Source: Elainellales cyanobacterium
Lineage (GTDB): Bacteria > Cyanobacteriota > Cyanobacteriia > Elainellales > Elainellaceae
Reading direction: 5' to 3'
DNA: 20,496 bases
Assembly (NCBI GenBank): GCA_038204505.1
Contig: JBBRCV010000084.1
Location: 1-20,496 of the forward strand
The notes under the pieces are model-generated. The model worked only from the letters and a program-made list of their open reading frames with translations. It ran no database searches and was not told where the DNA came from. Positions within the stretch are counted from its first letter, which is position 1, and every line of letters begins with the position of its first letter. The position numbers and the translations under genes are program-made. Of the stretch, positions 1 to 20,496 are shown in pieces.

Positions 1-227
1 GAAATCGTGTGCCTGATTTTGATGATCAACTGATGTTAATCGCAGCAGGATTATGGAACTTGTATTTAGAGGTAGCGTAAGTAGAACAAGAAGCCGGAAA
101 CCCTGTCCTCAAGCCAGTTTTATTACCCAACAAGTCTAATATGTTCAACGACCAAACTTGCAGGAAGAATTTCATCGACCGGGGTGCTCATACTGGCTTT
201 CTCTAGTTAATTCTGCTGTTGGCTATG

Positions 228-746
228 CTATTGGCTATCATGAGCCTGTCGTTGACTCCCTCGATACTGCTTTTGGCGATCGCCTAGATAACCTTGGTCT
301 TTCTGAAAACTACTGCGCTGACTACTGCGCTGACTACTGCCGTTCTGAGCCTGACGTTTTTTCTGAGTATTTTTCTGACTATCTCTCTGAATATCAGGGG
401 CAACAAATTCTTCCCGAATCCATCCTTTTAACTTAGATGAGTCGGCGAACTGTACGTGTTTCCAGATAGAGCCTTCATTGCTACCAACCTGTTCAAGCAC
501 GGTCACGCGATCGCCTCCTAATCCATATCCAACTCGCCGTTTTTCGATTCCTGGTTGAGGATAAACATTAATCTTAAAACTTGGCTCTGGAGCAACTAGC
601 ACACTCGGCTGATTCAGGCTTTGATTACTTTGATTGCTGCTTAAACTGCCATCTAAATTTCCATCTGCAAAGGCAAACGGCGCAAAAACGGTTAAGCTTA
701 GCGCGATCGCCATTAGAACCGCAATAATAAATGGTTTGAACGTCAT
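228..746 (-). CDS. small secreted protein with cleavable-looking signal peptide, possible SH3b-like fold, Gln/Ser/Arg-rich C-terminal tail
   Basis: 172-aa ORF. N-terminus MTFKPFIIAVLMAIALSLTVFAPFAFA-D has the n/h/c organisation of a signal peptide. The C-terminal SSQRSSQRSS is encoded by an in-frame 12-bp tandem repeat. No confident family assignment from sequence alone. Confidence 0.55.
   Translation of the reverse strand: MTFKPFIIAVLMAIALSLTVFAPFAFADGNLDGSLSSNQSNQSLNQPSVLVAPEPSFKINVYPQPGIEKRRVGYGLGGDRVTVLEQVGSNEGSIWKHVQFADSSKLKGWIREEFVAPDIQRDSQKNTQKKRQAQNGSSQRSSQRSSFQKDQGYLGDRQKQYRGSQRQAHDSQ
309..340. repeat. 2.7 copies of the 12-bp unit ACTACTGCGCTG, in frame within the secreted-protein gene (encodes SSQR repeats)
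   Basis: Read directly. Confidence 0.8.
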
Positions 747-796
747 AGTCTTTAACCGCTAATCTTTAGTTACGCTAATCTTTAGTTACTAACTTA

Positions 797-2152
797 TTAA
801 ACTTTTGTCTCTTGTTCGTATGCCAATTCTCCCATGATGTAAGTTGCCTCAACAGCCCGATCATCTCCCATGATTATCAGCGTAAATGCCAGCTCTGCTA
901 GCTCATCTAATGACATTGCTGTAGGCTCCGGGTTACGGAATGCCATCAAGGGTGTGGAACGCAAATTTAGCACAATAAAATCAGCTTCTTTACCAGGATC
1001 AAAATTGCCAATAGTATCCTCTAGCGACAGTGCTCTCGCTCCTCCCAACGTTGCTAAAAAGAGTGCTTGGAAGGCAGAAAGCTTTTGCTGTCGCAGTTGT
1101 GCCACTTTGTAAGCTTCGCTTGCCGTTTGCAGCAGCGAAAAGCTAGTTCCTGCTCCTACATCGGTTCCTAAACCAACTTTTACCGGATGTTCTGTTGATT
1201 TGGCTTGCTCAATTTTAAACAAACCGCTGCCCAAGAATAGATTAGAGGTCGGGCAAAAGGCGATCGCTGATTCAGCTTCCGACAGCCGCTTAAGCTCCTC
1301 ATCAGTTAGGTGTATGCCATGGGCAAATACAGAGCGGTTTCGCACTAGCCCAGCTTGATCATAGGCATCCAAGTAGCCGCTAGATTCTGGAAATAGCTCC
1401 TTTACCCACGCCACTTCATTCACATTCTCAGAGATATGCGTGTGTAGATAAACGTCTGGAAATTCATCCAGCAACTTTCCTGCTAAATGCAATTGCTCAT
1501 TTGTAGAAGTGATGGCGAACCGAGGCGTAACAGCATAGAGCAGCCGCCCGTTTTTGTGCCATTTCTGGATGAGGGCTTTGCTGTCCTGATACGAGGTTTC
1601 AGCGGTGTCTCTGAGCGAATCAGGAGCATGACGATCCATCATCACTTTACCTGCAATCATTCTGAGATTACGACGACTCGCCTCTTCAAAAAAAGCGTCA
1701 GTTGATACCGGAAATACCGTAGTAAATACTAGAGCCGTCGTTGTTCCATTTTTCAGCAGCTCATCTAGAAAAAAAGCAGCAACCTTCTGAGCATAAGCTT
1801 TATCGTTGAACTTACCTTCAGTCGGAAAAACATACTGATTTAGCCATTCCAAAAGCTGTTCGCCGTAAGCAGCAATAATTTCAGTTTGAGGAAAATGAAT
1901 GTGAGTATCAATAAATCCCGGCATAATCAGCCGCCCAGCACAGGAGATGATGGGCAACGCCGCATACCGCTCCTTGAGGCGATCGTAAGCTCCTAGCTCC
2001 TTAATCTTTCCGTTTTCCAGAATGAGCAATCCATCAGGAATATAACGAACGCTTTCTGATTCAGAACTGTAAAAGGGGTCATCAACAAAGTCCAGGAAAG
2101 AGCCGCGAAATGCCTTAAGGGAAGGTTCTTGGGATTGAGTAAAGTTTGGCAT
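797..2152 (-). CDS. guaD: guanine deaminase (amidohydrolase superfamily)
   Basis: 451 aa. N-terminal metal-binding block PGFIDTHIHFPQ and the later HTHISEN block are the hallmark His motifs of guanine deaminase/cytosine-deaminase-like amidohydrolases. The start is ATG at 2152. Sits in a cluster with a purine permease. Confidence 0.85.
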   Translation of the reverse strand: MPNFTQSQEPSLKAFRGSFLDFVDDPFYSSESESVRYIPDGLLILENGKIKELGAYDRLKERYAALPIISCAGRLIMPGFIDTHIHFPQTEIIAAYGEQLLEWLNQYVFPTEGKFNDKAYAQKVAAFFLDELLKNGTTTALVFTTVFPVSTDAFFEEASRRNLRMIAGKVMMDRHAPDSLRDTAETSYQDSKALIQKWHKNGRLLYAVTPRFAITSTNEQLHLAGKLLDEFPDVYLHTHISENVNEVAWVKELFPESSGYLDAYDQAGLVRNRSVFAHGIHLTDEELKRLSEAESAIAFCPTSNLFLGSGLFKIEQAKSTEHPVKVGLGTDVGAGTSFSLLQTASEAYKVAQLRQQKLSAFQALFLATLGGARALSLEDTIGNFDPGKEADFIVLNLRSTPLMAFRNPEPTAMSLDELAELAFTLIIMGDDRAVEATYIMGELAYEQETKV

Positions 2153-2223
2153 ATCAAATATATATACGCTACCATCTCTAATTCATTAGCTCTAATTCAC
2201 TAGAGAAATATTTTACTGCTCAG

Positions 2224-3348
2224 CTATCTATCCGGTTCTAACGCTGTGCTCTCAGCAGCAAGAGGCAATGATGCTTCTGAGCTGGCAAGATTTGCATTTG
2301 CTGGTGCGATCGCCCCAGTTCTCTTACTCGCAAACCTCCTGACAATTTCGTCGCGCTGGTTCACCAGATACACGCTAATCAGCGTTAAAACAACGCCGAT
2401 CCATTGCAGTCCAGACAGGGTTTCATCTAAAAGCAGGCTGCTAAACAGCAGGGCAAAAACTGGTGTTAGGAAGATAAGCGCACTGACGCTGGTCATGTTA
2501 CCATTTGCTGCCAAATAGAAAAATATTCCATACGTAATTGCTGTGCCAAACACCGTTGCATAGCCCAATCCAGCCCAGTCGCTGACGTGGAGGTTCACCA
2601 TCTGACTGTCCTCCCACATAAAAGACAGCGCCATCAGCGGCAGCCCACCCAGAATCATGTGCCAGCCCGTTGCTACCAGCGGATCAGCATGTTGCTTCAC
2701 ATAGTGAATAATGATGGTGCCAAAGGACATGGCTAGAGCCGCTAACAGCATTAGTAATTCGCCACTATTGAGCAGGTTTTGAACGTTGAATCCAGAAGCG
2801 ATAATCGGCTGCGAATTTGCCAGACTATCTTTGCTGCTCAGAACAGCCTGAACCGTATAAGGAACAGAAATTCCCAGATTTTGCAGGAGATTAAAGAACC
2901 AATAGCCGGGTAAGCCGCACAAGCAAATGCCTGCTAGCCCAATTCCTAAGCCTAGCCAGCCCCATAGCCCAATGAGTTCACCGAATAGAAACCTTGAGAG
3001 TAATGCCACGACCAAAGGTTGAGCATCAATCAAGATAGCTCCTATTCCTGCTCCTGTATGTACCAATCCCTCGGTGAGAAAGCCTTGAAAGATTGCTCCA
3101 TTGATCAGGGCAAATAAGCCAATCCACAGCCACGCTTGCCAGGTTTTGGGCTGGGGTCGCTTTAGCAGAGCCGCAACACCTAAGATTAAGACTCCTGCTG
3201 GCAAAAGACGAAATGCAGCGAGGAAGAGCGGCGTTGTATTAGGAAGAATGAACTTCATTACAACCATCGCTGTTCCTAAAAAGAAAAAAGGAGCAACTAG
3301 GAAGAGGGGCGATCGCGTAAAATCCGACTTTTCTGTTTGTATTTGCAT
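2224..3348 (-). CDS. EamA/DMT-superfamily transporter (10-TM, duplicated EamA halves)
   Basis: 374 aa, about ten hydrophobic helices in two similar halves. The pattern is typical of drug/metabolite transporter (EamA) proteins. Hydrophilic C-terminal tail. Lies between the permease and guaD on the same strand. Confidence 0.7.
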   Translation of the reverse strand: MQIQTEKSDFTRSPLFLVAPFFFLGTAMVVMKFILPNTTPLFLAAFRLLPAGVLILGVAALLKRPQPKTWQAWLWIGLFALINGAIFQGFLTEGLVHTGAGIGAILIDAQPLVVALLSRFLFGELIGLWGWLGLGIGLAGICLCGLPGYWFFNLLQNLGISVPYTVQAVLSSKDSLANSQPIIASGFNVQNLLNSGELLMLLAALAMSFGTIIIHYVKQHADPLVATGWHMILGGLPLMALSFMWEDSQMVNLHVSDWAGLGYATVFGTAITYGIFFYLAANGNMTSVSALIFLTPVFALLFSSLLLDETLSGLQWIGVVLTLISVYLVNQRDEIVRRFASKRTGAIAPANANLASSEASLPLAAESTALEPDR

Positions 3349-3485
3349 GGGCTGACATCACCGTTTCTGATGAAGGTTTTGATGAGAAGGAACGAACCTA
3401 TCGATCCAGGATTTAGGCAGGAGGTCTACCCCAAGAGATGCTAGGGGCTGCTTTTTTCATCAAGCCTCACCCCGTTGATAAACCA

Positions 3486-4925
3486 TTAACCTTTACTAAA
3501 CCGCAGCGTCATAAAGATGAACCGAGCGACAAAGATGCCTGCAATGATCCAAGTGCCCAGCGATACTTCATGCGCTTTGCCCTGGAACGCTTTGAGGAGC
3601 GGATAGGTAATAAACCCGATTGATAATCCTTCGGCAATGGAGAAGGTTAGAGGAATCATAAAAACTGTCAGGAAGGCTGGAATTGCCACCGCCATATCAT
3701 CCCAATCAATCTCTCTAATCTCCGACAGCATCATCGCTCCCACAATCACTAGCGTTGGTGTGGTGGCAAAAGCTGGGATGCCAGCAAAAAGCGGAATGAA
3801 AAATAGCGCCACCACAAATAAAGTGCCAATGACGATCGCAGTAAAGCCAGTTCGTCCCCCTTCAACGACTCCAGCCACCGATTCTATATAAACAGTGACG
3901 CTGGAAGTCCCCACTAAAGGACCAACGGTTGTGCCAATGGCATCCGCCATTAGCGCTCGGTTTGCACGGGGAAGCTGACCATCGGGACCAATGTAGCCTG
4001 CCCGCATTCCCACACCCGTCAATGTGCCAATAGTGTCAAAAATATCAACGAACAAAAAGACAAGCAGCACCGCGAACCAATCAATAAAGTTTTGACTATT
4101 GAGTTGACTCAGACCGCCGATCGCCTGTCCGAGCAGCGCCTGGGGAACCTCTGGAAATGCAAAGATACCTTTGGGCCAGGGCGTAACGCCTGAGATCCAG
4201 GCTAGGGCGGCAGTTGCAATAATGCCAATCAAGAGCGCTCCTCTAACCCGCCGCACCACTAAACCTGCGGTAATTAGTAGCCCGATCGCTGCCATCAACG
4301 TATTAGGTTCAGCGAAGCTGCCGAAGGCGGTTTTAGTGGCTTCGCTGGCTACAATTAAGCCCGCGCCCCCTTCTTTTACAGAACCCGACAGACCAATGTA
4401 GGCAATAAACAAGCCAATTCCACCTGCGGTCGCATGTTTAATTGAAGAGGGAATCGCTTGGATCAAATGGCGACGAACATCAGTGAACGTTAAAACGATG
4501 AATATTAGACCCTGAACAAACACGCAGGATAATGCCAATCGCCAATCGATCTTGAGTCCAATGACGACAGAAAAGGCAAAGAAAGCGTTGGTTCCCATAC
4601 CGGGCGCTAACCCAAAGGGATAGTTAGCAAAAAAGCCCATACACAAAGTAGCAACTGCCGCTGCGATCGCGGTAGCCACTGCCAGTTGAGAAAATAAATC
4701 GCCAGGTTTTTCCAGAAAAATGGCGTTCGACAAAATGATAGGATTCACCACCAGGACATATCCCATCGTCATAAAGGTGGTAATGCCTGCCAGAATTTCT
4801 GTTTTGAACCCTGTTTTGTAGAAATTAAACTTGAAGTAGTCCGCAATTGCGGCTTGCCAACCGCTGTAGGGTGAACCTTGAGGCGGCTCTGATCGTTCAA
4901 TGCCAGCATCTGTATCTGTATTCAT
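3486..4925 (-). CDS. NCS2-family purine permease, AzgA/PbuG-like (guanine/hypoxanthine/adenine)
   Basis: 479 aa. The N-terminus YFKFNFYKTGFKTEILAGITTFMTMGYVLVVNPIILS is the characteristic opening of AzgA-type xanthine/uracil-permease-family purine transporters. Multi-TM throughout. ATG at 4925 with GGAGA 13 nt upstream on the minus strand. Confidence 0.85.
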   Translation of the reverse strand: MNTDTDAGIERSEPPQGSPYSGWQAAIADYFKFNFYKTGFKTEILAGITTFMTMGYVLVVNPIILSNAIFLEKPGDLFSQLAVATAIAAAVATLCMGFFANYPFGLAPGMGTNAFFAFSVVIGLKIDWRLALSCVFVQGLIFIVLTFTDVRRHLIQAIPSSIKHATAGGIGLFIAYIGLSGSVKEGGAGLIVASEATKTAFGSFAEPNTLMAAIGLLITAGLVVRRVRGALLIGIIATAALAWISGVTPWPKGIFAFPEVPQALLGQAIGGLSQLNSQNFIDWFAVLLVFLFVDIFDTIGTLTGVGMRAGYIGPDGQLPRANRALMADAIGTTVGPLVGTSSVTVYIESVAGVVEGGRTGFTAIVIGTLFVVALFFIPLFAGIPAFATTPTLVIVGAMMLSEIREIDWDDMAVAIPAFLTVFMIPLTFSIAEGLSIGFITYPLLKAFQGKAHEVSLGTWIIAGIFVARFIFMTLRFSKG

Positions 4926-4941
4926 TAAACTAGCTTTCTCC

Positions 4942-4978
4942 TATTTGCTGGTGCATCTCTAGCCTTACCTAGCAAATA
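4942..4978 (-). promoter_or_regulatory. inverted repeat (TATTTGCTgG / CtAGCAAATA, 8-bp perfect core, about 21-nt spacer) in the permease leader immediately 5' of its Shine-Dalgarno
   Basis: Seen directly in the sequence. On the mRNA it would form a stem-loop ending about 4 nt before GGAGA. It could equally be a DNA operator. Confidence 0.25.
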
Positions 4979-5477
4979 CTTTTGCCGATAAAGCGTTACT
5001 TGGCTCAAATAATAGGAAGATTGTGAGACTCTAGCTGTTATTTTGAATACAATATTGCATTGAATTTAAAATCTTAATTGAACCCGCTCAGCTCAGAAAT
5101 TTTAACTACTTTATTTATGTACTTTGAAGATTCATATTGATATCTTTTACCAGCTTTATTTAGAAGCTGTCTATTCATCAATAATAGCCTCTATTGCCCA
5201 CTAATCAAGCTATTTGACTGTGATAAAACTATAAGTTGCTGTGCAATACCCATCAAATCTGCTAATGACAAACTATCAAAATGATGGCTTTTCTACAAAC
5301 GCTTCAAACGCTTCCTAACTTTGCCGTATTGAGGCTTAATTTTGTGATATTAATTGAACAGATGCGATCGCCGTATTTACTCTTCTAAAGTTTTCAACTA
5401 TACAAAACCGCCTCATACAATTTGCTATATATTTGCCAGGTATACTGTAGGTAGTTGAGCTATCTTACACACTGAAT

Positions 5478-6736: not shown

Positions 6737-7054
6737 GTGATTGTGTTCTCCAAAACTACTGCTTTAGAGTGGATTCAAACCAACATCCACATTGCCCTCT
6801 TGCTCTGTTTAACAGCATTCATTCTGGGAATGCTTACAGGTATTCTCGTGAGTCAGCAGATGCTCCAGAAACAGCGAACTAATTTCTCGGAAGAGAACCA
6901 GCAGGTAGAAATATCCTTACGGCAAAGTGAAGCCAAATTTAGGCGCTTTGTTGAATCAAATGTGATTGGCGTATATGTTGCTGATTTTAATGGAGCAATT
7001 TTTGAAGCTAACGATGCTTTCTTAGAAATGGTGGGTTACACACAAGACGGATGA
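6737..7054 (+). pseudogene. 5' fragment of a membrane-anchored PAS sensor gene (TM helix, coiled region, first ~45 aa of a PAS domain), truncated
   Basis: 105 codons from a GTG start. One TM (IHIALLLCLTAFILGMLTGILV), then FRRFVESNVIGVYVADFNGAIFEANDAFLEMVGYTQDG, which is the beginning of a PAS fold. The frame then stops. No continuation of PAS, HisKA or HATPase is found in any frame downstream. Confidence 0.5.
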
Positions 7055-7096
7055 CTTGCAGTAACCACTGTCATAAGCTACACAGGAAGTGCAATG

Positions 7097-7128
7097 TGAC
7101 ATCTATAGTCTTAGCAACACGTTATAAT
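7097..7128 (+). promoter_or_regulatory. candidate promoter for the toxin-antitoxin pair: consensus -10 TATAAT at 7123-7128, weak -35-like TGACAT 20 nt upstream
   Basis: Perfect TATAAT hexamer about 48 nt upstream of the toxin start. The -35 spacing is non-ideal. TTCAAG/CTTGAA inverted half-sites flank the region. Confidence 0.35.
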
Positions 7129-7175
7129 ATTTCAAGCATCTTCTGTTGGCTCAAGCACTCTGAAGGTTCTTCAAC

Positions 7176-7424
7176 TTGAAATACGAAGTTGTCTTAAAGC
7201 CGAAAGCCATTAAGGATTTGCAAAAGCTGCCGCTTAACACACAGACTCGGATTCTCGAAAAAGTAGAATTTGTCCAAAATGACTTGCAGGGAGATGTAAA
7301 GCATTTGACGAACTTCACTCCGGAATATCGTCTGAGAGTGGGCAACTACCGTATCTTATTCGAGATTGAAGATGGCAAGATCGTCATTTACCGTATCAAA
7401 CATCGTAGTGAAGCCTATTCATAG
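7176..7424 (+). CDS. type II toxin, RelE/ParE superfamily
   Basis: 82 aa: MKYEVVLKPKAIKDLQKLP...RILEKVEF...YRLRVGNYRILFEIEDGKIVIYRIKHRSEAY. This matches the canonical RelE/ParE pattern (xYxVxFsxxAxKdLkKL ... yRlRvGdYRiiYeidd...v.ilrIgHRkdvY). The apparent start is TTG at 7176, the first start codon after an in-frame stop, with GAAGG upstream. Confidence 0.8.
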   Translation: MKYEVVLKPKAIKDLQKLPLNTQTRILEKVEFVQNDLQGDVKHLTNFTPEYRLRVGNYRILFEIEDGKIVIYRIKHRSEAYS

Positions 7425-7436
7425 GAAGAGACAATT

Positions 7437-8407: not shown

Positions 8408-10549
8408 CTATGTACCGACCTTTTCATCTGGCTTGGCAGATCCGTTGACGATCGGATCAAGGGGCAGCAGCGCCGGCTCAACCCATTGAGAAGACTGCTC
8501 AGGTGGAGTGGGCTGATTGGGATCAAAAGGCTTTTTGCCCGTTTGATTCCAGAGAATCATGGAGAGTAAGCCATCAACTAAGCCGTTGCCATTGCCGTTG
8601 TTACCGACCAAAACATCGGGGATCAGGCGAACGTGGCGATCGCCAATAATTTGCATCAACTGCATTGCTGTGTAGCTCTGCCCACCCAAGGCATCCACCC
8701 CAGCTTGATAGGTTTCTGCTTTAGCGTTTCCGGTTGCCCGAATCGCCTCAGCTTCCCCAGTTGCCTTCAGTCTGATCGATTCGGCTTCCCCAGTGGCTTG
8801 CTTAATCTGAGCATTGGCTTTGAGTTCGGCAATGGTGACACTTTGTTCAGATTGCACTAACTCTTGCTGAATATCTGCTAGCGCGGTTTCACGAACCAAC
8901 TGCTGACGCTGAGTTTGTGACAGTTGTTGAACTTCGTAGGTCTTGCGCTTTTCTTCGGCAAGTTTGCGCTCGGTCTGGGTTTGCATCAGCTCAGCAGGAG
9001 GTTGGATGCCGCCGATGAGGGTATCGATCGCCTGGACATCGTAAGTACGCAGAGCCGTTCTGATGTATCCTGACGCTTCCGCTTGCCGTTCGCTACGAGC
9101 ATTGAGAAAATCTAGCACCGTATAGTCTTGGGCTGAATTGCGGAAGTAGTTGCCAATACTGGGTTCTAAGACGTTATCCACCAGGTTTTGCATAGAGCCG
9201 ACGCGAGAAATCACCTTGGGCGCATCCAAAGCCCCCACATGAATAATTTGCGAGACTTCCAGGGCAAAGGCAAACCCGTCGTTAGAACGAACCGTTAGGG
9301 CTTCTAAATTGTCATCGTAGTGATGGCGCTCGGTTCGGTCTGCCCAGTTCAGCACAATATTGATGGTGGGCACAAGTTCCACTTTCATGACGCGGGTATT
9401 GATGGGGTGCTTGCCAGGATAAAGCGGTTCTACCCAAACTCCCTTATGCCCCACCCGGACTAAGTTGCCGTGGGTAAATGCGGCACCGCTAACATCATCG
9501 GGAGCATCGCCCACAAAGGACACGACAACTCCCACGTAGCCAATCGGAATTTCGGTCATGGGTACTTGCTCAACTCGGACAAACCAGGGGTTAAGGTTCC
9601 AAGAGCCAGACAGCAGAATTTGTTGCTGTAAGCCGCGTCGTCCGCCCTGTTGAATGAACTTCTGCCCGTTTTGAAAGTTATCGTGATCGGGGACGGTGGC
9701 TCCGGCAAGTTCTCCCGATTCAATCGGCATCCCATCTAGGGTAGAGACAATGCCCACTTTGTCGGGCTGCATAGAATAGACACGAAGCTGCTCTGGCTGC
9801 ATTCCTTGTTTTGCAGCATTTTCAGCCGTAACAACTTTGAATAATGCCGTGTTAAGGCGGTAAGTCCCAGCGGTTAGGAAGCCAAGCTGACGACCCTTCT
9901 CACCGCCATTCGTGAGGAACTTGCGTGCATCTTGGAAGTTATCGCAAGGGACGACTTTGCCCAAAAGTCTTTCTAGAGGAATGGAGGTGCCGTCGTTGGC
10001 AACGAGAAGCGCCACTTCGCCTTGGGGAATGACAAGGAGTGACTCTTTGCGAACGCTGAACTGCCAGGGCCAATAGCCCCAATGCCAGCCCGGAGCGAGA
10101 GTATCGGCTTGGTAGCCCGCTTCGCCTTCGAGGGCAATCAACCGACCAGGGGGCAGGCGGCGACCAGAGAAGGAGACTTTTTTCACCACAATGCCGACTT
10201 CGCGTTCGCTGACAATGACCAATCCACCGCAGGCTAGCGCGATGAAGATGCCACCTGCGATCGCCACTGGTAAAACCGCCCAGCCCAAGGGAAATCTGCC
10301 CAGTTGCGCCAGTTGAACCTGAGCCACTGGAACCGGAGCAACAGGCAATTTAATAACTTGGGCTGCCACAGAGGGGGGTGTTACAGAGGAGGCTGTTACA
10401 GAAATTTCAGGCAGCGGCGATGCCAGAGCGCGTTGGGGTGTGACACTTGAGGCGATCGCGCTGGAGGCGAGGAGGGCTGTAGCGAGGCGAATGAAGTGAC
10501 GAGATTTGCGAGATTTAGAGCGCATGGAAGAATTTGAAGCGATTTCCAT
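8408..10549 (-). CDS. flotillin-like SPFH/band-7 protein with an unusual signal-like, Ser/Thr/Pro/Ala-rich N-terminal extension
   Basis: The SPFH core and long C-terminal Ala/Glu/Gln-rich coiled coil (ATGEAESIRLKATGEAEAIRATGNAKAETYQAGVDALGG) are typical of FloT/YqiK flotillins. Residues about 32-75 are MEIASNSSMRSKSRKSRHFIRLATALLASSAIASS followed by an S/T/P/A/V-rich linker. A TM segment (FPLGWAVLPVAIAGGIFIALACGGLVIV) comes just before the SPFH domain. The six-frame ORF extends to 10642 but begins with TTG. ATG at 10549 (MEIAS) or ATG at 10525 (MRSKSRK) is more plausible. The end at 8408 is firm. Confidence 0.8.
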   Translation of the reverse strand: MEIASNSSMRSKSRKSRHFIRLATALLASSAIASSVTPQRALASPLPEISVTASSVTPPSVAAQVIKLPVAPVPVAQVQLAQLGRFPLGWAVLPVAIAGGIFIALACGGLVIVSEREVGIVVKKVSFSGRRLPPGRLIALEGEAGYQADTLAPGWHWGYWPWQFSVRKESLLVIPQGEVALLVANDGTSIPLERLLGKVVPCDNFQDARKFLTNGGEKGRQLGFLTAGTYRLNTALFKVVTAENAAKQGMQPEQLRVYSMQPDKVGIVSTLDGMPIESGELAGATVPDHDNFQNGQKFIQQGGRRGLQQQILLSGSWNLNPWFVRVEQVPMTEIPIGYVGVVVSFVGDAPDDVSGAAFTHGNLVRVGHKGVWVEPLYPGKHPINTRVMKVELVPTINIVLNWADRTERHHYDDNLEALTVRSNDGFAFALEVSQIIHVGALDAPKVISRVGSMQNLVDNVLEPSIGNYFRNSAQDYTVLDFLNARSERQAEASGYIRTALRTYDVQAIDTLIGGIQPPAELMQTQTERKLAEEKRKTYEVQQLSQTQRQQLVRETALADIQQELVQSEQSVTIAELKANAQIKQATGEAESIRLKATGEAEAIRATGNAKAETYQAGVDALGGQSYTAMQLMQIIGDRHVRLIPDVLVGNNGNGNGLVDGLLSMILWNQTGKKPFDPNQPTPPEQSSQWVEPALLPLDPIVNGSAKPDEKVGT

Positions 10550-10623
10550 ATCGATGATTCGGTTCACCCGAGGGGTATGTGACGAATACAACCTAGCACT
10601 TCTGTCTAGCTCTGGTAAATTTC

Positions 10624-12336
10624 TTAATTTTTGAGTAAACAATCTGCTTTAAGAACAATTAACTGCGGCGTTTTTAGGACTCGGCACTTCCGAGTTAGTT
10701 TTGACAATGCTGGGATTTTCCCCGCCTCTAACTTCGTTAAAGCTTCTGTAAATGCAGGTTGAAAGCTTCTTAGCCAGCTTTTAGGCTCGGTGGTCAAATA
10801 TTCTGGTCTGAATGTATCGCGGTGTAGTACCCAGAAATCGATGCCATATTTTTGAATAAATTGCTGAGTTTTACCTAAATCCTCGCTGTACTGCGCCTCG
10901 ATTAAATCAATAGTGCGCTGACGAATTTGGTTGTAGTAGCCCAGATGGAAGGGCAGGGCGTACTCTCTGCCGACGAGGAGCGATCGCTTTGCAAACGTTG
11001 GAATATTACTCGCTTCGTCTGCCAAAGTTGCAATCAAACTATCTTTGGGCTGCTGCTGAAAAAACTCGTACAGCGCAGTCTCTCCAGACACGATGTAGCC
11101 TGCTCTGGGAAAATGTCGGAAGAACGCTGGATAGAATACTACTGCGATGGTTAATCCAGCCGTTAACGATAGGATTGCGAATCTTTTGAAAGGGCGATCG
11201 CCCATCTGCTCACAGGCACGCAACGTCATATCTAGCAGGAGAATGAGAGTGATACCAGCGGCAAGGGCGATCGCAATTCTCCAGGTATGTCCGGTGTAGC
11301 GCGTCGGGAAAAAAAGTTTAAGAATAACTGCATGGGCAGCAAAGTACAGACCCAAAGCCACCGCCGCCATCTGAGGCAAAATCTTAATATCTGGACTCAC
11401 CTGCGCTGCCAACGGAAATCGAGTCGGTTTTTTCAGCAGCAGTGGTAACAGAAAACCTGTCCACACCAAAGGCGGCACAAACCGGGGCAGGATGCCGCTA
11501 TTAGAACCAACCAGCCAGAATTTCCAAGGATTAGGATCATAAAACGGATGCCTGCCGCCTGTCCAGAGTTCGGGCATGGTGCGGGCTTGAGCGGCGGTAA
11601 CGGTGGGACCAAATTCGGCAGAGGCAATGATGTAGGGCAGCATGGCGAGGAATCCTAGCCCCGTGATGATGGCAAATGTAATGAGCGATCGCTTCGTAAA
11701 ACTAGGCAGCCAACCTTTCCAATGGGCGAGGCGAACGAAGAGAATGCCCAGGGAAATGAATATGAGGAGCGGATAAAAGAGGGCTTGTAGGATGATAACG
11801 AAGGTGAGCGATCGCCAAGACCCGCGCAGCAAGTAATACAAAAACGCCAGCAGTAGAGGCGTAGCAAACGAGCGAGGAGCTGCCGCCGCCAAATCTTCCC
11901 GCAGCCATAGCCCTTGATTGAGCAACTGCATCGCCACAAACCCAGCCGCCGGAATTGGGAAAAGCTGGAGGCTGACTTTAAATCCATAAAACGTTAGGAG
12001 TAAACCTAGGGCGATCGGCAAAAGTTTACTAAACGTCAGCGGCTCTACTCCCAAATGCGCCATCAGTTGATAGACAGCCGCATATCCCAATGGCGCAATG
12101 GACTTGAAATAATCTGCGATCAAATCATTAGGAAACAATGCCGGATCAACAAACCGCTGCATCCAAAACACATACTCGCGCGCGTCATCCTGCACCACGA
12201 AAGCAGACTGAAAGGCTTGCCGCATTCCCAAAATGGCGTAGTAGGCGGAAAAGATGAGGCTTAAGCCTAACCAAAATCGTTCTAGTGCTTTGGTGCCGGA
12301 AGCGGTGACAAACTGGCGCAAACGGGAGAAGAGCAT
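10624..12336 (-). CDS. polytopic membrane protein, putative GT-C-fold glycosyltransferase (ArnT/PMT-like architecture)
   Basis: 570 aa. About 11-13 hydrophobic helices in the first 420 residues, then a roughly 150-aa soluble C-terminal domain. The first extracytoplasmic loop after TM1 carries an acidic DDAREY motif placed like the DE/DxD motif of GT-C enzymes (ArnT DEARY, PMT DE). ATG at 12336. The stop lies 74 bp upstream of the flotillin ATG, or overlaps it if the TTG start is used. Confidence 0.6.
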   Translation of the reverse strand: MLFSRLRQFVTASGTKALERFWLGLSLIFSAYYAILGMRQAFQSAFVVQDDAREYVFWMQRFVDPALFPNDLIADYFKSIAPLGYAAVYQLMAHLGVEPLTFSKLLPIALGLLLTFYGFKVSLQLFPIPAAGFVAMQLLNQGLWLREDLAAAAPRSFATPLLLAFLYYLLRGSWRSLTFVIILQALFYPLLIFISLGILFVRLAHWKGWLPSFTKRSLITFAIITGLGFLAMLPYIIASAEFGPTVTAAQARTMPELWTGGRHPFYDPNPWKFWLVGSNSGILPRFVPPLVWTGFLLPLLLKKPTRFPLAAQVSPDIKILPQMAAVALGLYFAAHAVILKLFFPTRYTGHTWRIAIALAAGITLILLLDMTLRACEQMGDRPFKRFAILSLTAGLTIAVVFYPAFFRHFPRAGYIVSGETALYEFFQQQPKDSLIATLADEASNIPTFAKRSLLVGREYALPFHLGYYNQIRQRTIDLIEAQYSEDLGKTQQFIQKYGIDFWVLHRDTFRPEYLTTEPKSWLRSFQPAFTEALTKLEAGKIPALSKLTRKCRVLKTPQLIVLKADCLLKN

Positions 12337-12417: not shown

Positions 12418-12630
12418 TTAGGAATTATAACGACTGGCTCTTTCTGCGGCTCTGTGTTGGGGTTTTGTGTTGGCGATCGCTGCAATTTTCTCCCAATCTG
12501 CCTGCTCTAAAACCGCATCAAGCACGTCCGAAAGGTTGCAGTTCTGTTCGTAGGCAAGCTGTCTCAACATTTCGTGATGCTCAGGCTGAATATAAACGAC
12601 CTTCCTCTGAGTTTGTGCCATATATGCCAT
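12418..12630 (-). CDS. ribbon-helix-helix (CopG/Arc/MetJ-type) DNA-binding protein, candidate regulator of the adjacent R-M genes
   Basis: About 70 aa from ATG at 12630 (the ORF track extends to a TTG at 12669). RKVVYIQPEHHEMLRQLAYEQNCNLSDVLDAVLEQA is a beta-strand followed by two helices, typical of RHH proteins. No toxin gene lies downstream, so it is not a classical RHH antitoxin. Divergent from the methyltransferase, with a palindromic operator array between them. Confidence 0.6.
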   Translation of the reverse strand: MAYMAQTQRKVVYIQPEHHEMLRQLAYEQNCNLSDVLDAVLEQADWEKIAAIANTKPQHRAAERASRYNS

Positions 12631-12675
12631 ATATACTGTGCCTTTATCTTCCTCGTCATCATAGTTCAAAAATCC

Positions 12676-12716
12676 AATTAGCTATGTTGACAATTAGCTA
12701 ATTAGCTAGTTAAACT
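12676..12716 (+). promoter_or_regulatory. operator/promoter region: three copies of palindromic TTAGCTA(A) (12678-12684, 12694-12701, 12703-12709; the last two form the perfect 14-bp palindrome TAGCTAATTAGCTA at 12695-12708) interleaved with a consensus -35 TTGACA (12687-12692) and -10-like TAAACT (12711-12716) facing the methyltransferase
   Basis: All elements read directly. The operator overlaps the spacer of a TTGACA-18 nt-TAAACT promoter on the plus strand. On the minus strand it overlaps the -35 region of a TATGAT -10 box upstream of the RHH gene. Confidence 0.55.
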
Positions 12717-12860: not shown

Positions 12861-13913
12861 ATGAACCAAAGTGTTATTTCCCTATTTTCAGGTTGCGGCG
12901 GACTCGACCTAGGATTCCTGAAGGCGGGTTTTCCTATTACTTGGGCCAATGAGTACGACAAGGATATTTGGGCGACTTATGAAGCCAATCATCTCGACAC
13001 ATTTTTAGACCGCAGAGACATTCGGAAAATTAAGTCAGAAGAAATTCCCGATTGTATTGGTATTATTGGCGGTCCCCCTTGCCAAAGCTGGAGCGAAGCT
13101 GGTTCTCAGCGAGGCATAGAAGATGATCGAGGCAGATTATTTCTAGAATATGTTCGGATTTTAAAAGACAAACAGCCTTGCTTCTTTCTGGCTGAAAATG
13201 TGTCTGGAATGTTGCATGAGAAACATAGGCGAGCTATTCAAAATATTGTTTCGGCGTTTGAAGAAGCGGGTTATACAGTTTCATTTAAACTACTCAATGC
13301 AATGAACCACAATGTTTCCCAGGAAAGGAAACGAGTTATCTTTGTGGGTTACCGTGTCGATCTCAATAAACAGTTTGATTTCAACAGGGTTAATGTATCG
13401 CCTAAAATTCCCACTCTTAAAACCGCCATCTGGGACTTACAGGAGACCGCAATTCCTGCCTTAGCAACTAACAAAACAAATGCCGAAGCCTGTCTCTTCC
13501 CTAACCATGAGTATATGATTGGGGGCTTCTCCAGCATGTATATGTCTCGCAATCGGGTGCGATCGTGGGATGAGCCTTCATTCACGATTCAAGCAGGCGG
13601 CAGACATGCCCCATTGCATCCTCAAGCCAACAAGATGTTATTTGTGGAGAAAGACAAGTTTGCTTTCGATGAGCGATCGCTCTATCCATATCGCAGACTT
13701 TCTGTCCGAGAATGCGCCAGGATTCAAACTTTCCCCGATAATTTTATTTTTCACTATCGAGATCTTAGTGCAGCTTACAAAATGATTGGTAACGCTGTCC
13801 CTGCCAATTTGGGCTTTGCACTGGCTCAGGCAATTTATCAAGATCTATTCTCTAGCTCTGAAGCATCTCCGACCCTTACCCCACAGAAGCAACTGAGTCT
13901 TCAGATTGCGTAG
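12861..13913 (+). CDS. DNA (cytosine-5)-methyltransferase, M.HaeIII-like (predicted GGCC specificity)
   Basis: Conserved C5-MTase motifs: [67 protein letters not shown] and YKMIGNAVP. Block for block it matches my recollection of the M.HaeIII primary sequence ([35 protein letters not shown]). That is recollection, not a database search. The true start is probably ATG at 12861 (MNQSVISLF). The track start at 12846 is TTG. GGCC is about 25-fold depleted in the window. Confidence 0.9.
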
Positions 13914-13929
13914 CCTCCCATCTCAAGCG

Positions 13930-14718
13930 TTACTTTTTCTTTTCAATCATTAAGAAATATACTGTCCTGCGCTCAGACTCAGGAAAATTCTCGCGCCATC
14001 TTCGTTTGGTTTCCTTATGGGGTTTTGGTTGTCCAACAACATCCTTAAAAACCCAAGGCACATTCTCAACCTTGCGCGATATACTCCCTGCCCGAGTATG
14101 TTCAGAGTCACTTTCTTGCCCAACCCATTGCCTTCTAATTGCGACCTCAAGCTTAAATTTATATTGTTCAAAGTATTCATCGAAAGACCAGAGTAAAAGC
14201 TCATCTGCACTGTTGATTTTTTTGGGTGCTTCCAAAATAAATTCTGCGGGATGGGTTGAAGCTCCAAGATTCGGGCTTCCCTTCAGCATGAGAAACTGCA
14301 TCAGCGTCCTAAAATCTGGTTCTGAGAATAGGTTTTTCCAAGGTTGGTTTCTTTTAAGGAGTATCCCTTGATGAAACTTGTTAACTTCTCTATCAATGTT
14401 GGAGATGATCAGTTCAGGGTGAGTTAACCCCAAATCTGTGTACACCTCTAATAGGTTGGCTCTTTGCAAGCGATTAAAGGCAAAACTCCCGCCCGATTGT
14501 TTGATCGAAAGACCTCTACCGTTCAAGTAAATATCAGCTTTCTTACTGGCATGGGAAGTCGAAATCTGGGAGAGATCTTCTACCGAGTGAAGAGAGGTAT
14601 AGCGATCGCATCCCAAAATAGGAGCCGATATCTCCTCAACTAGCCCAATATGGTTCAACCGAACCTTGCCCAGGTTCAAAATTAAAAACTTACAAACCTC
14701 TAGCTCATTCCCTGCCAT
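13930..14718 (-). CDS. putative type II restriction endonuclease, cognate of the HaeIII-like methyltransferase (function inferred from position)
   Basis: 262 aa. ATG at 14718. Convergent with the MTase, with 16 bp between the stops. No transporter, enzyme or HTH motifs recognised. Candidate PD-(D/E)xK-like region KKADIYLNGRGLSIK. Basic C-terminus. Type II endonucleases diverge too fast to identify from sequence alone. Confidence 0.45.
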   Translation of the reverse strand: MAGNELEVCKFLILNLGKVRLNHIGLVEEISAPILGCDRYTSLHSVEDLSQISTSHASKKADIYLNGRGLSIKQSGGSFAFNRLQRANLLEVYTDLGLTHPELIISNIDREVNKFHQGILLKRNQPWKNLFSEPDFRTLMQFLMLKGSPNLGASTHPAEFILEAPKKINSADELLLWSFDEYFEQYKFKLEVAIRRQWVGQESDSEHTRAGSISRKVENVPWVFKDVVGQPKPHKETKRRWRENFPESERRTVYFLMIEKKK

Positions 14719-14891: not shown

Positions 14892-17468
14892 GTGGAGTCC
14901 CGTTACAACCCGGCAGAAATTGAGGAAAAGTGGCAAAAATTTTGGGCAGAGCAAGGGATGGACAAAACTCCTGAAGCAACTGACAAGCCCAAGTTCTATG
15001 CGCTGTCCATGTTTCCCTATCCGTCCGGCAACCTGCATATGGGACACGTGCGGAACTACACCATCACCGACGTGATTGCCCGTACCCATCGAATGCAGGG
15101 CGATCGCGTGTTACACCCGATGGGCTGGGATGCTTTTGGTTTACCTGCTGAAAATGCTGCTATTAAGCAAAATAGCCATCCGGCTCAGTGGACTTATCAA
15201 AACATCGCTCAAATGAAAACTGAGCTGAAGCGGCTGGGTTTGTCCTACGACTGGGATCGGGAGGTTGCGACTTGTTCTCCTGATTACTATCGCTGGACGC
15301 AGTGGATTTTCTTGGAATTCTTCAAATCTGGCTTGGCGTATCAAAAAGAGGCGGCAGTTAATTGGGACCCTGTTGATCAAACTGTGCTGGCAAATGAGCA
15401 GGTGGATAGCGCAGGACGAGCCTGGCGATCGGGCGCATTAGTCGAAAAACGTGTGCTCCGTCAGTGGTTCCTCAAAATCACCGATTACGCTGATCAGTTG
15501 CTCAAAGATTTAGATCAATTGGACGGATGGTCCGATCGCGTCAAGGTGATGCAAGAAAACTGGATTGGCAAATCCACTGGAGCACAGGTCGTCTTTACCA
15601 CCGAGGCAGGCGATGACTTGCCCATTTTCACCACGCGCCCCGATACGCTTTGGGGAGCAACGTTCATGGTGCTGTCGCCTGAGCATCCATTGGTAGAAAA
15701 GTTAACCACTCCTGAACAGTCTGCCGCTATCCAAACTTACAAAACTGCAACAGCAGCAGAAACCGATATTGAACGCACGGCTGAGAACCGCGAAAAAACT
15801 GGCGTTTGGACGGGCAGTTACGCCATCAATCCCGTCAACAGCGAAAGGATTCCGATCTGGATTGCTGACTACGTGTTGATGGGCTACGGGACTGGAGCGA
15901 TCATGGCGGTTCCTGCCCACGACCAGCGCGACTTTGAGTTTGCTCGGAAGTTCAATTTGCCTATTAAAGCAGTTGTGCAACCTACTGACCAAGCGTTATA
16001 CGGCGCAACGATGACCGAAGCCTATCCCGGCGATGGGGTGATGGTTAATTCTGGGGCATTGGATGGCGTGGCGGCGGGTAAAGCAGCGGGGCAGAGCGTT
16101 GAGGTGGCGATCGCCTGGTTAGAGTCACAAGGCAAAGGCAAGGGCACTTCAACCTATCGGTTGCGAGACTGGCTGATTTCTCGGCAGCGCTATTGGGGTG
16201 TACCAATTCCAGTGGTGCATTGTCCGAACTGCGGCATTGTGGCAGTTCCCGAAGCAGAGTTGCCCGTTGTTTTACCAGAAGCGGTAGAGTTCTCTGGAAA
16301 AGGCGCTTCTCCCTTGGCGCAGTTAGATTGGGTCAATGTGCCTTGCCCTACCTGCGGCACTCCGGCAAAGCGCGAAACCGACACGATGGATACCTTTATT
16401 GACTCGTCCTGGTATTTCTTGCGCTACCCCGATGCTAAGAACGAGCAGCAGTTGGGCAATCCGGCAATAGTGAACGATTGGATGCCAGTTGATCAATATG
16501 TGGGTGGCATTGAACACGCGATTTTGCACTTACTGTATTCGCGGTTCGTTACTAAGTTTTTGCGCGATCGCGGTTTCCTCAATTTCGATGAGCCTTTCAA
16601 ACGTCTGCTCACGCAAGGTATGGTTCAGGGCTGGACTTACATGAATCCCAACAAAAGTGGCAATGCCCAATGGATTCCTTCTGCGCTAGTCGATTCTAAA
16701 GATCCGAAAGACCCCGAAACTGGGGAGCCATTGGTTGGGTCTTTCAAAACCATGTCTAAATCTAAATACAACGGCGTTTCACCCGATGAAGTGATTAACA
16801 AATACGGCGCAGATACCGCCCGGATGTTTATCCTATTCAAAGCGCCTCCTGAGAAGGATCTGGAATGGGATGAAGCTGATGTAGAAGGGCAGTCTCGGTT
16901 TCTTAACCGGGTTTGGCGGTTGGTAGCAGAGTTTTCTGAACGAGGGACAACGGCAGAGAAGGCGATCGCAACTCTCTCAAAACCAGAAAAAGAATTGCGT
17001 TACGCCATCCACAACGCCATTCAGCAAATCACTGAAGATTTGGCAGACGACTATCAGCTCAACACCGCCGTTTCAGAATTGATGAAACTCAGCAACGCCT
17101 TGACTGATGCACCTTGCAAAGACTCCCCCATCTACACTGAAGGCATCCAAACCTTACTCAAACTCCTTGCCCCTTTTGCCCCTCACATGGCAGAAGAACT
17201 TTGGCACGGTCTAGGATACGCTGATTCAGTTCATCATCAACCCTGGTGCATCTTCGATCCCACTGCATTAGTAGTGGATGAAATCTCGCTGGTTATCCAA
17301 GTTATGGGCAAAACACGCGGAACTATCCAAGTGCCCTCCCAAGCTGACAAACAGGCGTTAGAACAATATGCCCGCGATTCTGAACTTGCCCAGCGCCACA
17401 TTGCTGACAAGGAGATTAAAAAAGTGATTGTCGTACCTGGAAAACTGGTGAACTTTGTGCTTGGATGA
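14892..17468 (+). CDS. leuS: leucyl-tRNA synthetase
   Basis: 858 aa. HIGH-class motif HMGHVRNY. The editing domain and the KMSKS variant TMSKS ([11 protein letters not shown]) are present. The N-terminus [15 protein letters not shown] is typical of cyanobacterial LeuS. GTG start at 14892 with GAGGAG 9 nt upstream. Confidence 0.95.
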
Positions 17469-17484
17469 CACCAGGAGAATTGGC

Positions 17485-18201: not shown

Positions 18202-18215
18202 AAGAGGTTCACAAG

Positions 18216-19415: not shown

Positions 19416-19428
19416 AAGGTTAGCAGGG

Positions 19429-20010
19429 TTATCCTTTCATCGCTTCTAGTAAAGCTGACAGCGCTTTATCTTCATGGGAATTAACTTGCCGATCTAACAG
19501 CGCAATGCCCACCGCTTTAGAAAGGGCGATCGCCGCCACATCTGGGTCTAGTCCCTCTATCAAAATCTCTAACGACTGCGGTACTTTCAACGCCGCCTTA
19601 ATTCCCAGCAACATCCCTTCCTCAAACCCCAACCTTTGCAACTGTGGAGCCAGCACCTCCCAATTAGCATCAGGTTCTCCCGCCTGAATCATGTACGCCA
19701 GTAGCCGTTGAAGCTTTCGTTCTTGCTGTTCCGTCATAACTGGAGGTAAAGATGGAGCGATCGCCTTTCCCTGATCCAGATTGGTCAAAATCTGCTGCCA
19801 ATCATGGGCTTCGCAGGAATTCGGCTTACCCACGGTCAAACAAACCTGAATCTTATTAGTCGTCGTATCTAACTGAGTGACCTGCGCCTGAACGCCTAAA
19901 AAGCCAAGCCACTGGGCGATCGTCGTCATCAGCGTTGAACGAGTCGCCTGACTGTTAGCAAGGAGGCGAATCTGAGTGCGAACCATTGGACTCACAAGTT
20001 GCGACAACAT
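19429..20010 (-). CDS. hypothetical protein (helical, TerB-like fold possible)
   Basis: 193 aa. ATG at 20010. No motifs recognised. Convergent with the hydrolase gene across a 13-bp gap. Confidence 0.5.
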   Translation of the reverse strand: MLSQLVSPMVRTQIRLLANSQATRSTLMTTIAQWLGFLGVQAQVTQLDTTTNKIQVCLTVGKPNSCEAHDWQQILTNLDQGKAIAPSLPPVMTEQQERKLQRLLAYMIQAGEPDANWEVLAPQLQRLGFEEGMLLGIKAALKVPQSLEILIEGLDPDVAAIALSKAVGIALLDRQVNSHEDKALSALLEAMKG

Positions 20011-20176
20011 AGGGCGACACAGGGGTATAAGAGTAAATTCAACCTACACATTAGGATAACGAAACCCTGGATTCTGGCAATTGTGCTACCAGAACGATTG
20101 CTGATTTTCCCAGGTGCATTTGGCAAGGCATTCTGGGAACAATCAACCTAACTGTCATCAAACATTTGCATCAGCT

Positions 20177-20496
20177 ATGACTAATTCCTCGTCTCAGCGG
20201 CGTGCCCTGGTCGTACAACACAACTTTTCGCCGTTCAATAACAAGCTGATCCAATCTGGCTATGCCAGTAAGGAACAGATGCAGCAAGCCCTAGTTGATA
20301 GCCGCAAAACAGGAAGACCCCTGACTGACGTATTGGCAATGATTACAGGGCAACAACTGCCCCCCGATCTGCTGCGCCAATACAAAAAGCAACAGCTCTT
20401 TGAACTCAAAATCCTCTACGGCGTTGAATCTCTCGACCCTGAAATCAGCCAAATTAACTCCAGTCAACTCACCCAGTTGATCGATGGACTCATCCC
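20177..20496 (+). CDS. 5' end of a pilB/gspE-like type IV pilus/T2SS assembly ATPase gene (N-terminal GspE-N/MshEN domain), runs off the window
   Basis: ATG at 20177. MTNSSSQRRALVVQHNFSPFNNKLIQSGYASKEQMQQALVDSRKTGRPLTDVLAMITGQQLPPDLLRQYKKQQLFELKILYGVESLDPE... matches the N-terminal domain pattern of PilB/GspE proteins. The track does not list it because it has no stop within the window. Confidence 0.55.
   Translation, partial: MTNSSSQRRALVVQHNFSPFNNKLIQSGYASKEQMQQALVDSRKTGRPLTDVLAMITGQQLPPDLLRQYKKQQLFELKILYGVESLDPEISQINSSQLTQLIDGLI

Follow-up and report, generated by a model that had tools for sequence, protein, structure and literature searches.

Near-complete absence of GGCC from a cyanobacterial locus with a predicted HaeIII-like restriction-modification cassette

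Why should 20,496 bases of a cyanobacterial genome contain almost no GGCC? The stretch in question, from contig JBBRCV010000084.1 of an Elainellales cyanobacterium (GCA_038204505.1), is analysed here over its whole length and is referred to as the window. Close to its leuS gene lies what appears to be a cassette of three genes: one for an M.HaeIII-type 5-methylcytosine (m5C) methyltransferase, one, convergent with it, for a 262-aa candidate nuclease, and a small divergent regulator-like open reading frame (ORF) (Table 1). We consider it probable that this cassette is an intact type IIP restriction-modification (R-M) system specific for GGCC, and that long-term selection against imperfectly protected GGCC has purged the sites from the DNA around it.

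The whole window holds three GGCC, at 4174, 10068 and 12944. A preliminary description of this DNA had given the same count and coordinates and had placed the last site inside the methyltransferase gene, all of which is correct. At the G+C content of the window (47.1%), base composition predicts 63.0 sites and a second-order Markov model 75.9. Dinucleotide-preserving shuffles (n=100) gave 75.9 +/- 8.5 and contained at least three sites in 100/100 cases, and synonymous-codon shuffles of the 14 coding sequences (CDS; n=2000) gave 58.1 +/- 6.0 and never fewer than 40. The scarcity is therefore significant against composition, Markov and codon-preserving nulls alike, with an observed/expected ratio (O/E) of 0.04 (z = -10.9; Poisson P ~1e-23 to 1e-28). 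The figure of ~80 expected sites at ~50% GC in the preliminary description proved slightly high (58-76), whilst its ~25-fold depletion agrees with the 21- to 25-fold found here. That description had also held that the depletion is particular to GGCC, and this is borne out. GGCC is the most under-represented 4-mer by a wide margin, the next being TCGA at 0.61 with no other below 0.6, and no 5-mer or 6-mer was conspicuously depleted in the k-mer scan of the window. The related motifs CCGG (33 copies, O/E 0.68), GCGC (67 copies, O/E 0.75) and GGWCC (7 copies) all persist, and composition, codon usage and neighbouring k-mers are insufficient to account for the deficit. Non-coding DNA is affected as well: the 3.9 kb that lie beyond the 14 curated CDS hold no GGCC.

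Within genes, all but one of the avoidable GGCC are gone, and avoidance has reached the limit that the genetic code imposes. Alone among dipeptides, Trp-Pro always contains GGCC, since Trp has the single codon TGG and all Pro codons start with CC; the 14 CDS encode two Trp-Pro dipeptides and both carry the site. The remaining copy is a Trp-Ala in the methyltransferase gene. In 28 homologues from other genomes the Ala codon at this position is GCA, GCT or GCG, and among the homologues compared GCC is unique to the window, so the site appears to be a young synonymous change. Because each of the three includes a Trp codon, all read GGGCCA on the forward strand. Elsewhere, codon choice depends on the neighbouring codon. 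Ala is encoded by GCC in 1/139 cases after a codon ending in G as against 118/377 in other positions (P = 1e-17), and Gly by GGC in 0/48 cases before a codon starting with C as against 149/330. Where GGC has been kept the next codon gives way, with Leu encoded by TTA or TTG (11/11) and Arg by AGA or AGG (5/5). Ten cassette-bearing cyanobacterial loci, pooled to 181 kb, avoid the same contexts, with GCC following G in 5/932 cases (1036/3081 in other contexts) and GGC preceding C in 6/481 (916/2560).

Synonymous change is not the whole of it. Across all fetched loci the O/E of Trp-Pro falls with that of GGCC, from 1.16 (GGCC O/E >0.6) through 1.01 (0.3-0.6) and 0.46 (0.1-0.3) to 0.33 (<0.1), whilst the reverse dipeptide, Pro-Trp, stays at 0.95-1.26 over the same bins. 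With four more loci added, those with GGCC O/E <0.1 hold 19 Trp-Pro and 81 Pro-Trp, against 63.8 expected. The deficit is supported against all non-depleted loci (Fisher P = 9e-11) and against the non-depleted cyanobacterial loci (15 Trp-Pro, 14 Pro-Trp; P = 1.3e-3), and ~40% of the residual GGCC in strongly depleted genomes is Trp-Pro. This shows that part of the GGCC deficit has been paid for with amino-acid changes, the dipeptide deficit not being statistically independent of the GGCC deficit. The leuS gene itself provides an example. The motif GWP(D/E)(K/R) of leucyl-tRNA synthetase (LeuRS) is found in 12/12 other cyanobacterial sequences (ten aligned, plus L121 and L122; such labels denote the fetched loci), whereas the window reads GWS. 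Its closest relatives (L002, L121 and L122) have TGG CCC at this motif, so the change to TGG TCC is a C to T at the inner, methylated C, and an unavoidable GGCC has been removed from the gene. A second such position in leuS is listed in Table 1.

We lean, if not by much, towards a broader statement: that in cyanobacteria with GGCC O/E <0.1 avoidance has passed the synonymous limit and is reshaping proteins, with Trp-Pro some threefold depleted and Pro-Trp spared, the agent being a widespread family of GGCC nucleases. If this were general, the proteome would bear the measurable mark of a defence system, and dipeptide deficits could reveal past restriction specificities. A review states that a non-synonymous contribution to site avoidance 'cannot be excluded' (PMC8410138). 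Our coverage of the literature was incomplete, and within it we found no earlier report of dipeptide-level or non-synonymous restriction avoidance, or of GGCC avoidance in cyanobacteria.

What, then, might target GGCC in this genome? The methyltransferase matches PF00145 (E 5e-94) and TIGR00675, and aligns over its full length with M.HaeIII (PDB 1DCT, residues 9-331; E 4e-125), including the target-recognition domain (PDB 1DCT/3UBT). The catalytic motifs are kept, with PPCQ from residue 72, ENV from residue 112 and QxRxR as QERKRV. Residues S224, R225, R227 and R243 of M.HaeIII contact the bases of GGCC (PMC3526282), and all four are conserved (in MSRNRVR and GGR). SRNR, PCQ and ENV are present in 28/28 homologues, and a dN/dS (ratio of non-synonymous to synonymous substitution rates) of 0.04-0.06 indicates purifying selection. 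Given the homology to M.HaeIII and the retained base contacts, the GGCC specificity that the preliminary description had assigned to this gene is well founded, and the enzyme most likely makes GGm5CC. The HaeIII system differs in its partner nuclease, which is unrelated in sequence, and the arrangement here is a convergent pair with an additional small divergent ORF.

The 262-aa protein is much less readily named. At E up to 10 it has no match in Pfam-A, the profiles of the R.HaeIII and R.NgoPII families included, which we take to be PF09556 and PF09521 (RE_NgoPII). Neither NCBIfam nor PADLOC nor the sequences of the PDB gave a match, a tblastn search against 50,697 phage records found none, and of its 311 homologues all those with a source name are labelled hypothetical. 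An alignment-based AlphaFold (AF2) model reached a predicted local distance difference test score (pLDDT) of 92.7. The predicted fold, which has the expected two sheets, resembles that of the monomeric 4-bp cutters HinP1I, MspI and HhaI. Residues E5, D62, S71 and K73 do not vary within the family (27 sequences for D62 and S71-I-K73). In the model, D62 lies one residue ahead of a predicted strand (63-65) and S71-x-K73 lies inside the next (68-74), a layout that in this predicted structure resembles the SD-X11-EAK catalytic arrangement of HhaI (PMC7026639). HinP1I (GCGC), MspI (CCGG) and HhaI (GCGC) differ from it in that the protein here has Ser as the middle residue (AD-X8-SIK) and a predicted site of GGCC. 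Its dN/dS of 0.07-0.13 again indicates purifying selection. We consider that it most likely cuts unmethylated GGCC.

Such a pairing has precedents. The unrelated nuclease families HaeIII, BsuRI, BspRI and NgoPII are found with similar GGCC methyltransferases (PMC2978348), and the locus described here would, like NgoPII/MthTI, BspRI and BsuRI, place an unrelated nuclease beside a HaeIII-type methylase. The BspRI family has 304 aa and a D...EXK motif, and BsuRI has 576 aa (PMC2978348). The protein in the window is set apart from both by these described lengths and motif, though a distant kinship with the BspRI family is possible. PlaI and DsaII are HaeIII isoschizomers from cyanobacteria. The 262-aa protein is likely to represent a new sequence family of HaeIII isoschizomers with an MspI/HinP1I architecture.

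Support for a functional pair comes from gene neighbourhoods in other genomes. In a scan of one genome per species, 32 loci carried a homologue of the 262-aa protein, and in 28 of them a gene for an M.HaeIII-like protein (55-86% identical) is directly adjacent, in convergent or tandem orientation. The pair was found again in four additional loci. Its hosts are spread over Cyanobacteria, Bacteroidota, Acidobacteriota, Omnitrophota, Brocadiaceae, Saccharibacteria, Ignavibacteriales and Proteobacteria, with Burkholderiaceae, Marinomonas and Tamlana among the further named hosts. In non-cyanobacterial hosts the cassette has a GGCC O/E of 0.25 against 0.61 in its own flanks; scarcity of GGCC inside a cassette has been taken as evidence of specificity for BspRI-like systems (PMC2978348). 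We conclude, by homology and linkage, that the pair at 12861-14718 is a putative GGCC-specific type IIP R-M system whose nuclease family matches no Pfam, NCBIfam or PADLOC family, and thus that a system matching the avoided site is encoded in the same genome.

Not all copies of the nuclease are so accompanied. Both a Coleofasciculus metagenome-assembled genome (MAG) and Bacillus benzoevorans carry solitary copies. In L030 a frameshifted copy lacks a methylase and lies in DNA with a GGCC O/E of 0.48, a 35-aa nuclease remnant sits by an intact methylase in Cyanomargarita calcarea (L033; O/E 0.20), and the nuclease ORF is split in L024 (O/E 0.04). These three look like stages of R-M decay in which the compositional footprint persists. 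On a mobilizable plasmid of Tolypothrix sp. PCC 7601 (NZ_CP064885.1; L114, 20001-21772) a 52%-identical nuclease is accompanied by a methylase of the D12 class, not C5, which is annotated as 'DNA adenine methylase'. This locus adjoins a RelE/ParE toxin module in a stretch with a GGCC O/E of 0.18. The 1.8-kb cassette contains 0 GGCC (2.8 expected) and 3 GATC (5.0 expected), and is too short to discriminate between the two. The D12 family is widespread in cyanobacteria, and the Synechocystis-like member that we examined is not beside accA, unlike sll0729. The product of the latter, M.Ssp6803II/DmtB (Sll0729), is a cyanobacterial orphan GGm4CC methylase that blocks HaeIII (PMC6105098). This D12-class enzyme targets GGCC, as is predicted for the methyltransferase here, but GGCC is not depleted in its host Synechocystis.

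How closely does depletion follow the cassette? The flanks of 16 cassette-bearing cyanobacterial loci have GGCC O/E of 0.00-0.20 (median 0.06), lower than those of 11 leuS-anchored loci flagged as cyanobacterial by their count of HIP1 repeats (0.04-0.77, median 0.31; P = 5e-4). A background of 67 leuS-anchored non-cyanobacterial loci had a median of 0.86 (5th percentile 0.55 in a near-identical 66-locus set), against which the R-M-bearing flanks of non-cyanobacterial hosts are lower (median 0.63, P = 5e-5). Depletion therefore accompanies the cassette, and the extreme values are confined to cyanobacteria. Within that phylum the depletion is lineage-specific and not universal. Two loci (L035 and L036) at a kinship distance similar to that of the strongly depleted L034 have O/E of 0.75 and 0.70, and the Synechocystis plasmid pSYSM has 0.66; together with L049 these served as non-depleted cyanobacterial controls. 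The Synechocystis chromosome contains 29,852 GGCC sites (PMC6105098). The Nostoc sp. PCC 7120 plasmid pCC7120alpha had been fetched as a further control and was moved to the depleted side because its O/E is 0.15-0.33 (three 50-kb stretches, L116-L118); it encodes 4 Trp-Pro and 20 Pro-Trp. We know of no GGCC nuclease in this strain, and the depletion of the plasmid may be the footprint of past or unrecognised GGCC restriction. An N4 GGCC methylase, DmtB, is present in Nostoc PCC 7120 (PMC6105098). A separate observation concerns CCGG, which is wholly absent (O/E 0.00), on top of the GGCC depletion, from three Pleurocapsa/Hyella loci (L007, L008 and L021) and has an O/E of 0.19 in a Xenococcaceae locus (L011). 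This looks like a second extreme avoidance footprint, presumably that of a CCGG-specific system.

The age of the association can be approached through the closest genomes, which by LeuRS identity are a Leptolyngbyaceae MAG (L002, 95%), Timaviella obliquedivisa (L122, 94%) and L121 (90%). All three are as depleted as the window, with the cassette beside leuS or one gene away. The order leuS-R-M-p570, where R and M are the nuclease and methyltransferase genes, is common to the window, L002 and L121, and in T. obliquedivisa the cassette lies on the opposite side of the p570 homologue, with an R that is 66% identical. Compared with L002, the synonymous divergence (dS) is 0.51-0.79 in flanking genes, 1.9 in M, 1.25 in R and 0.94 in the small ORF. 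These sequences suggest that the cassette has been replaced repeatedly within one neighbourhood, and fit a long residence of the cassette family there with turnover of alleles. The HIP1 repeat, GCGATCGC, occurs 29 times in the window (1.4 per kb; e.g. at 276, 507, 12473, 13673 and 14602), and CGATCG is the most over-represented hexamer. Three of the repeats lie in the cassette, a density equal to that of the host genes. Given this host-level density, its GGCC-poor sequence and its proximity to leuS in four related genomes, the cassette is not a recent arrival. Nor is the avoidance a fossil. When 10% or 28% of codons were resampled synonymously, the number of GGCC rose from 3 to 14 or 32, and at a dS to the nearest relative of 0.5-0.8, neutral turnover would have rebuilt as many since the split; avoidance has therefore been maintained. 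The depleted, cassette-bearing relatives, the host-type HIP1 of the cassette and these missing 14-32 sites uphold the long-term exposure that the preliminary description had proposed.

The account that we favour would run as follows. The window stems from a thin filamentous cyanobacterium akin to Timaviella and Leptolyngbyaceae. The methyltransferase would convert GGCC to GGm5CC and the nuclease would cut GGCC left unmethylated. Methylation would be imperfect after replication or repair, when expression of R and M is out of balance, or upon loss or replacement of the cassette; and if it is never perfect, each chromosomal GGCC is a small liability. Selection over a long time would strip the site wherever the code permits, by codon choice, with the leftover Trp-Pro dipeptides also being lost through amino-acid replacement and deamination of the inner C feeding in some of the mutations, such as the Pro to Ser change in LeuRS. 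Shown by the data above are the depletion and its codon anatomy, the effect on dipeptides, the nuclease gene's linkage to M.HaeIII-like genes together with the predicted fold of its product, and purifying selection on both genes. We infer from these that the nuclease cleaves GGCC, that the site is in fact methylated and that self-restriction is the selective agent.

Three other explanations must be set against this one. We give practically no credence to an artefact of composition or codon usage, or to chance in a short window. The window does measure just 20.5 kb and most 4-bp palindromes in it are mildly under-represented (0.6-1.0), but the constituent trinucleotides GGC (313) and GCC (346) are plentiful, the Markov, dinucleotide-shuffle and synonymous-shuffle nulls all lie at 58-76 as against 3 with a Poisson probability <1e-22, and a like depletion recurs in 16 other cassette-bearing cyanobacterial loci; with every null used in agreement, this explanation was rejected. 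A purely mutational origin deserves more thought, though we regard it as very improbable. CpG decays through m5C deamination in vertebrates, and the inner m5C of GGCC could likewise turn into T, the site decaying to GGTC or GACC with no need of a nuclease. The Pro to Ser change in LeuRS (TGG CCC to TGG TCC) is just such a C to T at the methylated position, and R is degraded in the depleted loci L033 and L024. However, at xxG|GCC both products of deamination are non-synonymous (Ala to Val or Thr), and yet such sites have been purged as thoroughly as others, via the outer, unmethylated positions, leaving GCC after G at 1/139 in the window and 5/932 in the pooled loci against ~33% elsewhere. For GGC C to GGT C, a synonymous outcome of deamination, the pooled loci show no excess of GGT (37.5% vs 37.0%, P = 0.87), and GGA, GGG and GGT stand in for GGC before C at their background frequencies. 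Downstream codons have adapted too, with Leu TTR and Arg AGR after GGC, and outside cyanobacteria GGCC is scarcer in the cassette (0.25) than in the flanks, which share its methylation (0.61). Codon context, GGT frequencies and the contrast between cassette and flank thus point, indirectly, to selection against the site and not to m5C deamination alone, which we rejected as the sole cause. Deamination supplies some of the mutations and probably speeds the loss, but it is not the main cause and the pattern goes beyond it.

The harder question is whether the present cassette was the agent. The depletion may have been inherited from earlier or other GGCC systems, or from a wider cyanobacterial gene pool, with the present cassette a later arrival or allelic replacement; causality would then be reversed, a near GGCC-free genome having eased its establishment, since few sites would need protection and post-segregational killing would be slight. 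We think this unlikely, though it is the most serious of the three. GGCC depletion is patchy yet common in cyanobacterial DNA without a cassette next to leuS: seven of the ten such leuS-anchored loci (L034-L042 and L049) are below 0.5, L034 (LeuRS 76%) stands at 0.04 with no R-M genes beside leuS, and pCC7120alpha is also low. The cassette is evidently mobile, as its surroundings in Phormidesmis, Mastigocladopsis and others are unrelated and an R homologue is found on the mobilizable Tolypothrix plasmid. R and M have diverged from L002 more than the flanks have (dS 1.25-1.9 against 0.5-0.8), T. obliquedivisa has its 66%-identical R one gene away despite a LeuRS identity of 94%, and non-cyanobacterial hosts of the family are just mildly depleted. 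Against this, the cassette lies beside leuS or one gene from it in the window, L002, L121 and L122, it has the HIP1 density of its host and is itself GGCC-poor, and avoidance maintained since the split from L002 needs an agent that targets GGCC, for which an intact R under purifying selection is the obvious candidate. Moreover, an earlier system differs from the explanation that we favour just in which GGCC system acted first. The preliminary description had allowed for 'this locus or a predecessor', a wording that fits these data, the link to the present cassette being a putative one when L034 is equally depleted without R-M genes at leuS.

Several further points weigh against selection by this particular cassette. 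Because L034 (0.04), L039 (0.05) and pCC7120alpha (0.15-0.33) are depleted with no cassette in view, it may not be the cause; and because non-cyanobacterial hosts have a median of 0.63, the presence of the system alone is insufficient for a 25-fold effect. With R and M at about twice the dS of their flanks and the Timaviella cassette displaced, the present allele may be a replacement and not the original agent. The modelled nuclease has Ser at the catalytic-triad position that Glu, Gln or Asn fills in most PD-(D/E)XK enzymes, and its specificity for GGCC is argued from linkage, fold and scarcity of the site. The DNA measured is 20.5 kb of the source genome, from which depletion genome-wide is an extrapolation. 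Finally, the dipeptides were counted in mechanically called ORFs (>=120 aa, longest non-overlapping), and the depleted loci are phylogenetically clustered, a kinship that the dipeptide statistics ignore.

That genomes avoid the sites of their resident type II systems has long been established, with self-restriction as its accepted cause (PMC8410138). In the window, as in such hosts, a palindrome matching the resident type II system is scarce across housekeeping genes through context-dependent choice of synonymous codons. The avoidance of restriction-site palindromes in type II R-M hosts was reportedly described by Karlin (1992), by Gelfand and Koonin (1997), by Rocha (2001) and by Rusinov (2018), and self-restriction is said to have been demonstrated by Pleska (2016). 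Avoided sites typically have O/E of 0.2-0.7. The magnitude here is larger, with 0.04 in the window and 0.00-0.20 in the flanks of cyanobacterial cassettes. The phenomenon is therefore textbook, and what goes beyond the textbook is the completeness of the purge, its current maintenance and its non-synonymous component. The locus offers a very clean natural case of a genome sculpted by a resident restriction system, or by a succession of them, and a means of gauging how strong a selective force self-restriction is, with frame-specific contexts that separate selection from m5C deamination. In practical terms, strains of this group should be transformable solely with DNA that is GGCC-free or HaeIII-premethylated.

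The third gene of the cassette, the small ORF divergent from the methyltransferase gene, is kept beside M in 8 cyanobacterial loci. It has no helix-turn-helix (HTH) or any other Pfam match, its sequence pattern is ribbon-helix-helix-like (RHH), and a single-sequence AF2 model was weak (pLDDT 60.6). It may be regulator-like, the RHH assignment being a guess from the sequence pattern. Between it and M, three copies of AATTAGCTA/TAGCTAATT surround a TTGACA hexamer, and together these form a possible operator and promoter. R-M systems under C-protein control have a small HTH controller gene with C-boxes upstream of R, whereas the small ORF here, if it is a regulator, would belong to a different, RHH-like kind; it is transcribed away from M and does not lie upstream of R.

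Table 1. Coordinates of the cassette, the surviving GGCC sites and related features of the window
Feature	Position	Strand	Basis or remark
GGCC-depleted host DNA, coding and non-coding	1..20496	.	3 sites vs 58-76 expected
Residual unavoidable GGCC, Trp-Pro (TGG CCC) in xanthine/uracil-type permease gene 3486-4925(-)	4174..4177	-	
Residual unavoidable GGCC, Trp-Pro (TGG CCC) in SPFH/Band-7 protein gene 8408-10642(-)	10068..10071	-	
Small ORF, candidate cassette regulator	12418..12630	-	70 aa from ATG; 83 aa from TTG at 12669
Three AATTAGCTA/TAGCTAATT copies around TTGACA hexamer, between small ORF and M	12676..12711	.	sequence only
M.HaeIII-like C5 cytosine methyltransferase, predicted GGm5CC	12861..13913	+	homology
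Sole avoidable GGCC, Trp-Ala (TGG GCC) in methyltransferase gene	12944..12947	+	
Candidate GGCC restriction endonuclease, 262 aa, predicted PD-(D/E)XK fold, HinP1I/MspI/HhaI class	13930..14718	-	
leuS TGG TCC (Trp-Ser), Trp-Pro in relatives	15528..15533	+	LeuRS alignment
leuS TGG TGC (Trp-Cys)	17244..17249	+	Trp-Pro where relatives are non-depleted or intermediate; Phe-Pro in two further relatives with strong depletion

Two other parts of the window drew our attention. At 6737-7424, where G+C is low (0.39-0.43), a 105-aa ORF, apparently a truncated sensor gene, covers just the initial part of a PAS domain before it stops, and an ORF for a ParE-family toxin comes next (7176-7424); this stretch has the look of a small insertion or of decay. 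On the reverse strand at 797-4925, genes for a guanine deaminase, an EamA/DMT-type transporter and a xanthine/uracil-family permease stand in series and probably form a purine salvage cluster.

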